DNA from: an uncultured Pseudomonadota bacterium
GTDB lineage: Bacteria; Bacillota; Sulfobacillia; JAUYEF01
Length of the DNA: 64,000 nucleotides
Assembly (NCBI GenBank): GCA_964417635.1
Contig: CAYQIY010000011.1
Coordinates: 33,741-97,740, forward strand
Reading direction: 5' to 3'
Both the position numbers and the translations under genes were made by a program. A model generated the notes under the pieces. The model made no database searches, was not told where the DNA came from, and worked only from the letters and a program-made list of their open reading frames with translations. Positions 49,218 to 61,093 of the stretch are shown here, one piece after another. Every line of letters begins with the position of its first letter. Position 1 is the stretch's first letter.

Positions 49218-51395
49218 ATGGTTCACAAAAGAGCGGTATACGCACGTGTAATCGTTGCTGAACGCACCCACGATGGCGCCGCCGCTTTTGACTATATGAT
49301 ACCTCCTGAGTTGATAGGCAGGTTGTCGCTTGGAGCGGGTGTGGCAGTTCCGTTCGGCAAAAAGGTCACGCATGCTTGTGTGACCTCTCTACTGCAGCAT
49401 TCCGAACGTGCCACAAAGCAGATAATCGATGTGCTGCCACGCGAGATGTGGCCTGGAGAAGAACTGTGCCGTCTCGCGCTTTGGGTTGCGGGAAGGTACA
49501 TGTGCGGAGTGGGAGTTGCGCTGCGCGCAGTGCTCATCGGAGGTGCTCGTGTGCCGACACAGGCACGCTATTCGCTTTCAGCAAGCGACGCACAGGCTAC
49601 GCTTACGGCTCAACCCCTGATTGAGTTGCTCAGAGACGGCCCCAAGACCAAGAGGAGCATTTCGAGGGCGCTCGGAGCAACCTGGCAAGAAGAACTCCAA
49701 AGCAGCATAAGAGCCGGACTCGTTGTTGAGACCGAAGAATTCAAGGTCAAGCACACAGCCAAGAAGACAGCCGTACGTGCGCAGCACGAGTATTCGGTCT
49801 TGTGCCAACCGGAGCCCGAACTCACAGACGCTCAGCACAGCGCACGTACAAGAATTGTGTCCGGTGACGGAGTGTTCGTGCTGTTTGGAGTCACTGCATC
49901 AGGCAAGACAGAAGTGTACCTTAAGGTTGTAGAGCAGCACTTAGAACGCGGGAGGGGCGCGATAGTGTTGATCCCTGAAATAGCGCTTACTCCGCAAACG
50001 GTGGGCAGGTTCAAGCAGCAGTTCGGTGAGCAGGTTGCTGTGCTTCATAGCGGTCTATCGCAGGGCGAGCGGCATGAGCAATGGCTCAGAATCAGATCTG
50101 GTGCCGCAAAGATAGCGGTGGGCCCGAGATCGTGCGTATTTGCGCCGGTTAAAAGCCTATCCTTGGTTGTCATCGATGAAGAGCACGACCGTGCGTACAA
50201 GCAGCAAGAAGAACCCAAATACCATGCCCGGGAAGTAGCCATAAGACGAGCTTCAAGCGTTGTGCTGGGTAGTGCCACCCCGTCGCTTGAATCGTTTCAC
50301 AAAGCGCTTACGAAGCAGTACAACCTGATCGAAATGCCTGACAGGCTGCCTGGGCTTGCGCTTCCTTCGTGCAGCATCGTGGATATGCGAGCAGAACTTG
50401 CGTCCGGTAATCGCAGCATATTCTCTGAAGCGCTGACGGAGTCGCTTAAAGAACGACTCGATAGAAAAGAGCAGGCGGTGCTTTTTCTTAACAGGCGAGG
50501 CTATGCGACGTTTTTGCTCTGCCGTGAATGCGGCCATGTGATAAGATGCCCGTGGTGCGATGTTTCGGGTGTGCTGCATGTATCGGAAAACAGGGTCAGG
50601 TGCCACTACTGCAACTGGTCTCTCAAGGCGCCCGACAGGTGTCCGGAGTGTGGCTCGAGCCACATAAGGCAGTTTGGTACCGGCACGGAGAAAGTGGCCG
50701 CCGAGGTCAGCGCGCTCTTTCCGGGTGCGAAAGTGTTGCGAATGGACAGAGATACGACGTCACGCAGGGGTTCGCACGAAGCGATCTTGACCGCGTTCCA
50801 ACGGCGTGAAGCAGACGTACTAGTGGGCACTCAGATGATATCCAAAGGACATGACTTGCACGGAGTAAGCCTTGTGGGTATCATCAATGCTGACACTGCA
50901 CTGAACATGCCTGATTTCCGGTCGAGTGAACGCACCTTCCAACTGATAGCTCAAGTGTCTGGACGCGCCGGGCGAGGAGAACAGCCGGGTGAAGTGGTGA
51001 TACAGACTTATTGCCCTGGTCACTACGCAATACGCTCTGCGGCTACACTGGATTACAGGAGTTTTTACGACACCGAAATTCGGTTCCGTGAAGAGCTCGG
51101 CTACCCGCCGTTCGGAGAACTGCTCGCTGTCTCTATCCGAGGCAAGAGCGCGGATGAGTGTCGGGAAACAGGGAGCAAAACTGTTGAACTGCTCACAAGT
51201 TCAAGCATTGGTGCTGAACTCGAGGTCTTGGGTCCGGCTCCGTGCCAGGTATCAAGGGTAAAAAGGGTTCACAGGTGGCAGATCCTGATAAAGTCTCGGA
51301 CTAGAGCCAAAGTGCGTGAAGCGGGAAGAATACTCTTGCGCCATTTGGATACGCGTCGAGTCTTGTTGGATGTTGATCCAGAACATATTACTTGA
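49218..51395 (+). CDS. priA: Primosomal protein N' (replication restart helicase PriA)
   Basis: ORF 49191..51395; start at Met10 after GAGGAGAG; Walker A GVTASGKTEV, DEEHD, Cys-rich zinc-binding region (CRECGHVIRCPWCD..CHYCNW..CPECGS). Confidence 0.9.
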   Translation: MVHKRAVYARVIVAERTHDGAAAFDYMIPPELIGRLSLGAGVAVPFGKKVTHACVTSLLQHSERATKQIIDVLPREMWPGEELCRLALWVAGRYMCGVGVALRAVLIGGARVPTQARYSLSASDAQATLTAQPLIELLRDGPKTKRSISRALGATWQEELQSSIRAGLVVETEEFKVKHTAKKTAVRAQHEYSVLCQPEPELTDAQHSARTRIVSGDGVFVLFGVTASGKTEVYLKVVEQHLERGRGAIVLIPEIALTPQTVGRFKQQFGEQVAVLHSGLSQGERHEQWLRIRSGAAKIAVGPRSCVFAPVKSLSLVVIDEEHDRAYKQQEEPKYHAREVAIRRASSVVLGSATPSLESFHKALTKQYNLIEMPDRLPGLALPSCSIVDMRAELASGNRSIFSEALTESLKERLDRKEQAVLFLNRRGYATFLLCRECGHVIRCPWCDVSGVLHVSENRVRCHYCNWSLKAPDRCPECGSSHIRQFGTGTEKVAAEVSALFPGAKVLRMDRDTTSRRGSHEAILTAFQRREADVLVGTQMISKGHDLHGVSLVGIINADTALNMPDFRSSERTFQLIAQVSGRAGRGEQPGEVVIQTYCPGHYAIRSAATLDYRSFYDTEIRFREELGYPPFGELLAVSIRGKSADECRETGSKTVELLTSSSIGAELEVLGPAPCQVSRVKRVHRWQILIKSRTRAKVREAGRILLRHLDTRRVLLDVDPEHIT

Positions 51396-51405
51396 TGGAG
51401 GACAT

Positions 51406-52836
51406 ATGGCAACCGAAATAGTGACTGAAGGCGAACCTGTACTCAGGCACAAGGCCAAGCCTGTGAAGCGTGTGAACACGTCCATACGCCGTCTTCTTGA
51501 TGAGATGGTAGACACTATGCGCGAAGCCAACGGTGTCGGACTTGCTGCTCCACAAATAGGCGTATCCAAGAGAGTGATTGTGGTTGACATAGGTCAGGGG
51601 CTTCACGAGATCATAAACCCTGAAATACTCAGCAGTGAGGGCTCGGTTCAAGGAATAGAGGGTTGCCTATCAGTGCCAGGTTGGATAGGTGAAGTCGAGC
51701 GCGCCGAAAGCATCAGGGTGACAGGATTGGACCGCGACGGCAGGCAGATCTGGCTCGATGCCTGTGGTTTTCTAGCGCGCGCATTGCAGCATGAGATCGA
51801 CCATCTCGACGGGGTGCTGTTTGTGGACAAAGCCATAAGCATCACCGAGGTCAAGGACGAAGATGAAGCGCAGGCTGAAGACTTGCCTGCTTCGAAACTT
51901 GAGCCATTTCGTATCGTATATATGGGGACACCCGAATTTGCGATTGCGCCGCTTGAATGCCTGCTTGCGGCGGGGCATCAAGTGGTACAGGTTGTTACCC
52001 AGCCTGACAGAAAAGGCAATCGTGGACGAATAGAGGTGCCTGCTGTAAAGCAGTACGCGCTTGACGCTGGATTGGCTGTTGTGCAGCCGCATAACGTCCG
52101 AGATGAGCAGTTTGTAGACCTTATTGCCAAACTTGAGCCCGACTTCATAGTGGTTGCCGCGTTCGGACAGATACTACCTGCTGCCCTGCTCGATGTGCCT
52201 AAGTTCGGAGCAGTGAACGTTCATGCGTCGCTTCTGCCAGCGTATCGAGGCGCAGCTCCTGTACAGCGTGCGATCATGAATGGTGAGCAATTTACCGGAG
52301 TCACTATCATGAAGATGGACATCGGACTTGACACGGGGGATATCATATTACAGGAGAAGGTTGCGATCGAAGCAGACGATGACTCCGGGACACTGGCTCA
52401 CAAGATTGCTGCAGTCGGCGCAAATCTGCTACCGAAGGCGCTGTTGATGCTGACCAGGCAGGATGTAGAACTGCGCAAGCAAGATGACGCAAACGCGTCG
52501 TATGCGCCCAGGCTTACCGCACGAGACGAAATAGTCGACTGGAGCCTGAGTGCCAGGCAGATAGCTCTTCAGGTGAGAGCGCTGTCTCCTCTGCCGGGTG
52601 CAAGGACGAAGTATAAAGACAGGTGGCTCAAGATATGGAAGGCGTCGGTGTGTTATGGTGGGCCGAACGGATTACCGGGTACGCTCGTGCGGGCCGAGGA
52701 AAGCGAACTCCTCGTCCTGACATCCGACCAAACTTTGCGTATAATTGAGTTGCAGCCCGCGGGTAAGAAGCGGATGACGGCAGAAGAGTTCTTACGCGGA
52801 TATCGGCCTGAGCCCGCGGCCAGGTTCTCGATGTAA
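51406..52836 (+). CDS. Peptide deformylase - methionyl-tRNA formyltransferase fusion (Def-Fmt in one reading frame)
   Basis: ORF 51316..52836; start at Met31 after GGAGGA; Def motifs GVGLAAPQ, EGCLS, QHEIDHL (aa 1-148), acidic linker KDEDEAQAEDLPASKLEPF, then Fmt domain (RIVYMGTPEFA..., HASLLPAYRG); no in-frame stop between the two domains. Confidence 0.8.
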   Translation: MATEIVTEGEPVLRHKAKPVKRVNTSIRRLLDEMVDTMREANGVGLAAPQIGVSKRVIVVDIGQGLHEIINPEILSSEGSVQGIEGCLSVPGWIGEVERAESIRVTGLDRDGRQIWLDACGFLARALQHEIDHLDGVLFVDKAISITEVKDEDEAQAEDLPASKLEPFRIVYMGTPEFAIAPLECLLAAGHQVVQVVTQPDRKGNRGRIEVPAVKQYALDAGLAVVQPHNVRDEQFVDLIAKLEPDFIVVAAFGQILPAALLDVPKFGAVNVHASLLPAYRGAAPVQRAIMNGEQFTGVTIMKMDIGLDTGDIILQEKVAIEADDDSGTLAHKIAAVGANLLPKALLMLTRQDVELRKQDDANASYAPRLTARDEIVDWSLSARQIALQVRALSPLPGARTKYKDRWLKIWKASVCYGGPNGLPGTLVRAEESELLVLTSDQTLRIIELQPAGKKRMTAEEFLRGYRPEPAARFSM

Positions 52837-60317: not shown

Positions 60318-60515
60318 TGTGCAAACCTTCGGGGCTGGGTGAGAGGGCGTGCCCTCAATTCCCTACCGGCGGTGGGGCCAGGTCTGGCCGAGCCCGCGAC
60401 CCCCGTTAAGAACGGGGCTGATCCGGCGAAGAACCGGAGCCGACAGTATAGTCTGGATGGGAGAAGGTGTGTTTTGGTGTAGTTCCCCGGGGTTTCGCCC
60501 GGGTTTTTTGCTGCC
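60318..60515 (+). ncRNA. FMN riboswitch (RFN element) with terminator-type expression platform
   Basis: CTTCGGGGCTGGGTGAGAG..AATTCCCTACCGGCGGT..GCCCGCGACCC..GATCCGG..CCGGAGCCGACAGTATAGTCTGGATGGGAGAAGG matches conserved RFN blocks; followed by CCCGGGgtttcgCCCGGG hairpin + TTTTTT immediately upstream of ribU RBS. Confidence 0.8.
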
Positions 60516-60541
60516 CGGGACGAAAGAGGAGGAGTCAATTG

Positions 60542-61093
60542 GTGAAAGACAAGAGTGTTCAGATGGTGGTTCGTATCGGGTTTCTATCGGCTGTCGGGTT
60601 GGTGCTCACGTTCTTTGAGTTTCCCATTCTTCCGAGTGCTCCGTTTCTCAAGTACGACGCTTCAGAAGTGCCTGCGTTGATCGCCGCTTTCGGTATGGGG
60701 CCCTTGGCCGGTTTTCTGACGGTATTTCTTAAGAGCTTGCTTTTCCATTTCTCGGGCAAGAACATGACGGGCATAGTCGGTACGAGCGCAATGATAGTGG
60801 CGGGAACGGCGCTTGTGGTGCCGGCGGGAATAGTCTACGCAAGAATGAAGAACATTCGAGGCGCGGTGTTGGGTCTTCTCTCCGGCATAGTGGGAATAAC
60901 GGTTATAATGTTCTTTGCCAATCTGTATGTACTGCTCCCGCTTTGGGGAATACCGGAAGAGATTCGGGCGTCTCTCGTGAGAAGTGCGGTTGTGCCGTTT
61001 AACATTATCAAGGGGTTTACCAGCTCAATAGTCACCTTCCTGCTTTACAAGAGGGTCTCCTCGATAGTAAGGCTAGACAAGCCTATTGTCTAA
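60542..61093 (+). CDS. ribU: Riboflavin ECF-transporter substrate-specific (S) component RibU
   Basis: ORF 60467..61093; GTG start after AAAGAGGAGGAG; multi-TM protein aligning with B. subtilis RibU/YpaA (FEFPILP..., DASEVPALIAAFGMGPLAG); FMN riboswitch upstream. Confidence 0.8.
   Translation: MKDKSVQMVVRIGFLSAVGLVLTFFEFPILPSAPFLKYDASEVPALIAAFGMGPLAGFLTVFLKSLLFHFSGKNMTGIVGTSAMIVAGTALVVPAGIVYARMKNIRGAVLGLLSGIVGITVIMFFANLYVLLPLWGIPEEIRASLVRSAVVPFNIIKGFTSSIVTFLLYKRVSSIVRLDKPIV

Follow-up and report, generated by a model that had tools for sequence, protein, structure and literature searches.

A 64,000-nt stretch of DNA from an uncultured bacterium (contig CAYQIY010000011.1, positions 33,741 to 97,740 of the forward strand; assembly GCA_964417635.1), referred to here as the window, contains a gene in which the coding sequences of peptide deformylase (Def) and methionyl-tRNA formyltransferase (Fmt) are fused, termed def::fmt below. 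The gene occupies positions 51406-52836 on the forward strand as one open frame from ATG to TAA (52834-52836) and encodes 476 amino acids (aa) with no stop codon between the domains, as a first-pass annotation made from the sequence alone had reported. The stop codon (TGA) of the upstream priA gene is located at 51393-51395, and the ATG of def::fmt comes 10 nt later. A longer open reading frame (ORF) using a GTG at 51316 overlaps priA, and its extension finds no support among homologs, whose starts align with the Met at 51406. The features of the gene are as follows:

51397..51401, + strand: Shine-Dalgarno (SD) sequence GGAGG, 4 nt before the ATG at 51406, read from the sequence
51406..52836, + strand: def::fmt fused ORF, 476 codons plus TAA, with Pfam and NCBIfam matches and an identical protein at loci L001-L003
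51406..51846, + strand: peptide deformylase domain, aa 1-147 (PF01327, TIGR00079; AlphaFold2 predicted local distance difference test (pLDDT) score >90)
51532..51555, + strand: Def motif 1, GVGLAAPQ, aa 43-50 (G43, G45, L46, A47, and Q50 invariant in 32 fused homologs)
51658..51672, + strand: Def motif 2, EGCLS, aa 85-89, with metal ligand Cys87 (from the homolog alignment and the sequence)
51787..51813, + strand: Def motif 3, QHEIDHLDG, aa 128-136, with ligands His129 and His133 and catalytic Glu130
51847..51906, + strand: acidic disordered linker EVKDEDEAQAEDLPASKLEP, aa 148-167, 20 aa, net charge -6 (AlphaFold2 pLDDT <50 at aa 154-164)
51907..51909, + strand: TTT (Phe168) where the ancestral Fmt had its initiator Met, the old start codon being gone
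51907..52443, + strand: Fmt N-terminal formyltransferase domain, aa 168-346 (PF00551; aligns with E. coli 1fmt)
52216..52224, + strand: Fmt catalytic Asn271-Val-His273, equivalent to E. coli Asn108 and His110, invariant in 32 homologs
52228-52239, + strand: Fmt SLLP motif, aa 275-278, following Asn271-Val-His273
52330-52332, + strand: Fmt Asp309, equivalent to Asp146 of E. coli 1fmt, invariant in 32 homologs
52513..52806, + strand: Fmt C-terminal tRNA-binding domain, aa 370-467 (PF02911, 88 bits)

Both halves of the protein scored well above the thresholds of their families. In the Def half, PF01327 (Pep_deformylase) matched aa 4-145 with 170.5 bits against a cutoff of 22.8, and the NCBIfam model TIGR00079 (def) scored 163 bits against a curated cutoff of 104. 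The three Def motif definitions given in PMC12690207 (GxGxAAxQ, EGCxS, and QHExDHxxG) are all satisfied, which bears out the earlier description of the Def catalytic motifs as intact. The full Fmt domain described at the same time was likewise recovered, with PF00551 (Formyl_trans_N) matching aa 170-346 at 143 bits, PF02911 following it, and TIGR00460 (fmt) scoring 288 bits against a cutoff of 201.5 while covering model positions 1-308 of 315. All catalytic residues of Def and Fmt are present and invariant across 32 aligned fused homologs. In addition, the loop TQPDRKGNRG (aa 198-207) aligns with TQPDRPAGRG of E. coli, an Fmt-specific loop which contacts the acceptor arm of the initiator tRNA, as known from structural work on 2fmt. 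Judged by its sequence, the Def module is a complete metal-dependent peptide deformylase, predicted to remove the N-formyl group from nascent proteins, and the Fmt module is a complete two-domain enzyme, predicted to formylate initiator Met-tRNA with 10-formyl-tetrahydrofolate.

Apart from a real fusion, the first-pass annotation had considered loss of the def stop codon through a sequencing error, and a sequencing or assembly artefact in which a base error erased the stop or shifted the frame is the first alternative to be weighed. The identical 476-aa protein occurs in three independent metagenome assemblies from different samples (ENA ERZ27252302, ENA ERZ27252299, and JGI 3300033172); the DNA of two of these is 100% identical to the window, and the third has one synonymous single-nucleotide polymorphism (52083 G>T). 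In a homolog search over 5.8 billion protein clusters, domains were checked in the best 120 matches, which share 41-60% identity with the window protein over 85-100% coverage (one record being partial), and all 120 carry the three Pfam domains. The fused protein is also encoded by the complete genome of Thermaerobacter marianensis DSM 12885 (CP002344). The eight closest relatives (P0002-P0009, 55-61% identity), which together with the window form what we refer to as the window clade, are fused without exception, and the gene order priA-def::fmt-Zn_peptidase_2-rsmB-rlmN-PP2C is kept, as far as the contigs extend, in all four clade members for which contigs were read. Singleton "fusions" do occur in public data, as in P0186, which has a GGAGG-like sequence and an ATG at its junction, and such cases lend the artefact some plausibility. 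However, the recurrence of the exact same protein in three assemblies, the eight fused relatives, in which the linkers vary and the old Met1 has become Phe or Leu, and the loss of both the old start codon and its SD sequence, which needs several mutations and not one error, leave the artefact with a negligible probability. With the fusion kept at 41-61% identity and in a finished genome, the suggestion of a sequencing error is refuted, and the window gene is a genuine, evolutionarily fixed fusion.

The P0186 protein itself, from a JGI metagenome, is a singleton Def-Fmt fusion in which the Fmt half is 77-89% identical to the stand-alone Fmt of Neobacillus. Its junction (GGEAKMM) corresponds to a retained SD-like GGAGG and ATG. 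Either its stop was lost very recently or the sequence is in error, and P0186 serves as a useful negative example.

We compared the closest pair of clade members, P0004 and P0007 (89% aa identity), and obtained ratios of nonsynonymous to synonymous substitution rates (dN/dS) of 0.086 overall, 0.085 in Def, and 0.087 in Fmt, supporting purifying selection on both domains; the linker of the pair showed zero amino-acid changes although dS was 0.22. These values bear on a second alternative, namely that one module is a decaying or regulatory pseudo-domain with the true enzyme encoded elsewhere. The Exiguobacterium genomes with a published def-fmt fusion also have a second intact peptide deformylase (PMC12690207), and public data include tandem Def-Def proteins whose first copy is degenerate, both of which would be in keeping with such decay. 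Against it are the intact and invariant catalytic residues in both halves, scores exceeding the equivalog cutoffs for both, and the equally strong purifying selection on each (dN/dS ~0.09). We therefore regard a pseudo-domain as very unlikely, and two working modules in one gene as the better account.

The acidic linker of about 20 aa noted previously is confirmed by the 20-residue segment given above. At its downstream end, the ancestral Fmt Met1 codon has become a Phe codon, either TTT or TTC, in each of the five clade members with DNA read, the window included. We noted no SD-like motif before any in-frame start codon in the window linker, including TTG 51883 and ATG 51922. The first-pass annotation had suggested looking for an internal fmt start in this range (51883-51922); the two codons exist, and the upstream sequence expected of a start is absent at both. 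A start at ATG 51922 would further leave the Fmt fold without its first beta-strand (FRIVY). In a promoter and terminator scan, counts were at the chance level and no signals setting def apart from fmt were found.

With the stop codon absent between the domains, the full-length fusion must be produced, and with the old fmt start changed to Phe and no ribosome-binding site present, Fmt is expected to be made only within the fusion. As the linker holds no SD-plus-start signal, one bifunctional polypeptide is expected, and we consider it highly probable that def::fmt is a real, bifunctional, single-polypeptide fusion, a reading already put forward in the first-pass annotation and supported here by the intact domains, the purifying selection, and the lack of an internal start signal in the linker. 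The competing possibility is that separate Fmt, and perhaps Def, is still made, either by internal initiation or by proteolysis in the exposed linker. It draws on the in-frame TTG and ATG mentioned above, on a Thermaerobacter locus (L006) that carries GGAG, a 6-nt spacer, and TTG right at the old fmt start, and on the predicted disorder of the linker, which would leave it open to proteases. Neither in-frame codon of the window has an SD-like motif upstream, however, and use of the ATG would cut into the Fmt fold. At the old Met1, five of five clade members read TTT or TTC, and four of five loci from the wider family read CTG, CTG, CTC, and TAC, such that no internal start is conserved, and the stop-free frame forces a full-length product in any case. 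Two separate products are accordingly an unlikely outcome, and the single fused polypeptide is the reading followed below.

The L006 locus (Thermaerobacter sp. metagenome-assembled genome (MAG) DATCKH010000243) reads CCG GAG AGC GAG TTG at its junction, with the GGAG, 6 nt, and TTG at the old fmt start. This resembles a relic ribosome-binding site and start inside a fused ORF, with a TTG codon that is rare in a gene of 73% GC. The L006-type TTG is not kept in T. marianensis (CTG) or other relatives. A "PPE..L" junction is recurrent among the homologs with short linkers; we considered whether it represents a relic SD sequence and start still in use, and rejected this family-wide, with CTG, CTG, CTC, and TAC in four further loci and TTT or TTC in the window clade.

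Across 118 fused homologs, the linkers differ in length and sequence, ranging from 5 to 67 residues (median 12) and being rich in Glu, Pro, Ala, and Gly. Asp and Glu together make up 31% of linker residues versus 13% in the whole proteins, and the linker is net negative in 98 of the 118, across different junction classes. In place of the old Met1, 73 of the homologs have Leu, 17 have Pro, 8 each have Phe and Val, and 4 have Ile; only 4 have Met.

An AlphaFold2 run on the window protein with a 32-sequence alignment gave a mean pLDDT of 92.6 and a predicted template modeling (pTM) score of 0.66, with pLDDT falling below 50 only at aa 154-164. The model fits two rigid modules on a flexible, disordered tether, with their relative orientation undefined. 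In a structure search, the best PDB matches were E. coli Fmt (1fmt and 2fmt) for aa 166-467 and various deformylases of 147-209 aa for aa 3-155, and no PDB chain was found to hold both Def and Fmt domains. The Def match to E. coli peptide deformylase stops near E. coli residue 149, and the window Def has no counterpart of the basic C-terminal helix of the E. coli enzyme, which reportedly docks it on the ribosome (Bingel-Erlenmeyer et al. 2008). In an unfused relative (L005), Def likewise ends soon after the HExxH helix. Given that the short C-terminus is seen in an unfused protein too, it probably predates the fusion, and the fusion need not have disrupted a docking helix.

We next consider how widely the fusion is spread. 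As tblastn joins neighboring genes, each related locus was checked for a continuous ORF, and tblastn spans of ~4-467 query residues were rejected as evidence of fusion. The background sample comprised 80 loci from species-representative genomes and 80 metagenome loci, all among the matches listed and mostly unfused, distant loci. Among the genome matches listed, 2 of 80 were fused, one in a Candidatus (Ca.) Fermentithermobacillaceae MAG and one in a Thermaerobacter MAG; in 55 of 80 a stop codon in the same frame separates the genes, in 22 of 80 they are in different frames, and 1 of 80 had no def match. None of the 80 metagenome matches listed was fused, and one had no def match. A stop or frame change was thus present in 156 of the 158 listed loci with both genes, in agreement with the earlier statement that def and fmt are normally adjacent yet separate: separate adjacent genes are the rule, and the fusion is a minority state.

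To look beyond these loci, a junction-spanning query was set against 1.84 billion representatives at 50% identity, and a direct domain check of the best 150 matches identified 51 proteins in Def>Fmt order. Counting fused families by an E-value threshold was rejected, as fused proteins were not separated from single-domain matches (7 at 1e-30).

The history of the fusion was assessed with neighbor-joining trees of the concatenated Def and Fmt domains, which are poorly resolved at depth. In the first tree, 109 of the 118 fused proteins fell into one all-fused group, with 3-8 state changes across bootstraps. On adding 14 sequences, this group split into sets of 60, 32, and 13 plus smaller ones, with 7-13 state changes across bootstraps, and a single origin of the fusion was rejected as not robust. 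The window clade was all-fused in every bootstrap replicate and was placed in the same all-fused group as Thermaerobacter in 47 of 100. A robust result of the trees is that small fused groups adjoin unfused Lachnospiraceae and MAGs labelled Chloroflexota. Evidently, the fusion has been gained or lost repeatedly, with at least seven state changes in the sample analyzed, and it has reached fixation in many different Bacillota-related lineages, most of them uncultured, and in the cultivable Thermaerobacter.

The taxon labels of the MAGs are inconsistent. One 90%-identity cluster (P0010/P0121) bears the names Ignavibacteriales bacterium and Bacillota bacterium at once, and Acetobacteraceae or Rhodopseudomonas palustris is given as the source of other fused proteins (P0095 and P0322 are listed among the inconsistent labels). 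A phylum-level spread read from source names should be trusted only after the bins have been checked.

Four proteins from NCBI and JGI (P0415, P0417, P0422, and P0430) form a separate, conserved Bacilli-type fused family with Thr at the old Met1 and the junction ...EEL..LQ[VI]K[ED]T-RIVFMGTP. This family may be the published Exiguobacterium type.

Other combinations of the two domains were observed among public representatives. Six proteins of 330-700 aa (P0278, P0290, P0298, P0311, P0344, and P0317) are tandem Def-Def proteins, each matching PF01327 twice. One of them, P0298, has degenerate N-terminal Def motifs (GMAAIMAG, ESSIS, and QHEIDYLDG) and an intact C-terminal copy, and may consist of a pseudo-enzyme and an enzyme. 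Eight shorter proteins of 113-205 aa (P0246, P0252, P0253, P0271, P0289, P0294, P0338, and P0375) consist of 30-110 residues from the start of Fmt linked to the C-terminal half of Def. They have no Def motif 1, their domain order is the reverse of the genomic def-fmt order, and they could be assembly chimeras or deletion products.

Fusion of def and fmt has been described before. In four Exiguobacterium reference genomes, the two are fused into a single gene, called an unusual case by the authors, and the Def-Fmt fusion of E. alkaliphilum restores the growth of an E. coli def-fmt deletion (PMC12690207, Mol Biol Evol 2025). In the literature searched, no paper other than PMC12690207 was found to mention a def-fmt fusion. 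By its published description, the Exiguobacterium fusion matches the window gene in being one ORF with Def N-terminal, Fmt C-terminal, and no stop between them. The host differs, being a member of the Bacillales in one case and an uncultured Bacillota-like lineage in the other, the nearest named relatives of the latter being Thermaerobacter and Ca. Fermentithermobacillaceae. Given that unfused Paenibacillus loci (L007 and L008) lie between the groups and that the Bacilli-type fused family joined the window group in 0 of 100 bootstraps, the window and Exiguobacterium fusions probably have separate origins. The fusion was treated as confined to the genus in PMC12690207, whereas it is much more widespread in the data here. 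The novelty implied by the first-pass annotation is therefore not upheld, as a def-fmt fusion is both published and functionally validated, and databases already carry the label "Multifunctional fusion protein".

The fusions of T. marianensis DSM 12885 and T. subterraneus comprise the same three domains, with 43-45% identity over 96-98% of the window protein, in the same neighborhood (priA-def::fmt-Zn_peptidase_2-rsmB-rlmN). The Thermaerobacter proteins are longer (550 aa), with extra N-terminal and C-domain insertions relative to the window protein. Their linker is minimal (…VVELPPESDL-RVVFMGTP), with Leu (CTG) at the old Met1, in contrast to the 20-aa acidic linker and Phe of the window protein. 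UniRef names the Thermaerobacter fusion "Multifunctional fusion protein", and NCBI names it "methionyl-tRNA formyltransferase".

Relative to the canonical def-fmt operon of E. coli and Bacillus (Meinnel & Blanquet 1993, as cited in PMC12690207), the window gene shares the enzymes, the gene order, and co-transcription, in a neighborhood of the Bacillota type priA-def-fmt-rsmB-rlmN-prpC-prkC-rsgA-rpe. The canonical operon yields two polypeptides, with a stop codon after def and an SD sequence and start of its own for fmt, as opposed to the one polypeptide predicted here. A further likeness is to ArnA, which is also bifunctional and has a homolog of Fmt as its formyltransferase module. The partner in ArnA is a dehydrogenase/decarboxylase acting in the same pathway, whereas that in the window protein is Def. 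Assignment of the window protein as ArnA was rejected, as its NF005998 score of 184 bits is far below the cutoff of 777 and a dehydrogenase domain is absent.

We propose that the fusion would have arisen from an adjacent def-fmt pair through the loss of the def stop codon and the translation of a short spacer. In L005, the unfused relative, def ends in TGA and fmt begins with TTG after a spacer of 15 nt, without a change of frame, which is likely the precursor state, given a single stop-codon substitution would fuse the genes. In the window clade, the former fmt start would then have mutated to Phe, leaving no ribosome-binding site and Fmt available only as a part of the fusion. In the cell, Fmt would formylate Met-tRNAfMet before initiation and Def would take the formyl group off nascent chains, with the two modules most likely acting independently, each on its usual substrate. 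The fusion would enforce strict 1:1 and simultaneous co-production of Def and Fmt, meaning that the cell would never formylate initiator tRNA without a deformylase also being present. A deformylase is essential only with active formylation, and an E. coli def-fmt double deletion is viable and slow-growing (Mazel et al. 1994, as reported through PMC12690207); since the need for Def exists only when formylation is active, coupling would remove the risk of formylation without deformylation.

The benefit is thus most likely obligatory 1:1 co-expression, rather than substrate channeling. Channeling is not expected, because the product of Fmt is not a substrate of Def, and the flexible tether in the predicted structure argues against a fixed composite active site. 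The functional coupling suggested in the first-pass annotation is supported in a weak form, as enforced co-expression, with no sign of channeling and with the modules predicted to act independently on a disordered tether.

Several points weigh against the reading of def::fmt as an obligatorily coupled, bifunctional enzyme. Both activities, and a single-polypeptide product in vivo, are predictions from sequence. Cleavage in the exposed linker, or low-level internal initiation independent of an SD sequence, could occur. No second def or fmt was found within the 64-kb window; a stand-alone copy of either may exist elsewhere in the genome, as all Exiguobacterium genomes with the fusion have a second peptide deformylase (PMC12690207), and this would weaken the argument for obligatory coupling. 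Lastly, the advantage of enforced stoichiometry is one we infer, and neutral fixation of the fusion is possible.

A bolder proposal would be that the only Def and the only Fmt of a deep-branching, mostly uncultured Bacillota-related lineage are permanently tethered, that the acidic linker is functional, and that the fusion recurs because it is advantageous. As examples of a functional linker, it might hold Fmt at the ribosome via Def, or might act as a nucleic-acid mimic that tunes tRNA binding by Fmt. We view this combined proposal as unlikely.

The fusion is mechanistically ordinary and of a kind already described, and its breadth across lineages exceeds that in the literature. Its importance is modest, since the mechanism of neither enzyme is altered. 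For annotation, ORFs of this type, which at present carry only the label "methionyl-tRNA formyltransferase", should be named bifunctional Def/Fmt and should not be marked as errors due to a frameshift or stop loss. The recurrent fusion also offers a natural experiment on why formylation and deformylation are kept in strict balance and on whether the deformylase needs a free C-terminus at the ribosome. Antibiotics are directed at peptide deformylase, and loss of fmt is the usual route to resistance; a covalent Def-Fmt unit would be a convenient single-gene tool with which to study this link.

The genes around def::fmt form a classic Bacillota cluster, comprising coaBC, PHP, priA, def::fmt, Zn_peptidase_2, rsmB, rlmN, a PP2C phosphatase, a PASTA kinase, rsgA, and rpe, with ogg and a gene for an HD protein on the minus strand between PHP and priA. 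No rRNA gene was found in the window. Inside the 3' end of fmt, we noted a sigma-70-like match at 52717-52745 on the + strand (11 of 12 positions; CTGACA, 17 nt, TATAAT), located ~120 nt upstream of the Zn_peptidase_2 gene (52863), in a region where counts of such matches are at the chance level. Further downstream lies one more feature:

60321-60472, + strand: flavin mononucleotide (FMN) riboswitch, RF00050 (92.6 bits against a gathering score of 66.2)

The riboswitch is directly upstream of, and slightly overlaps, an ORF at 60467-61093, and is presumably the leader of a riboflavin biosynthesis or transport operon.

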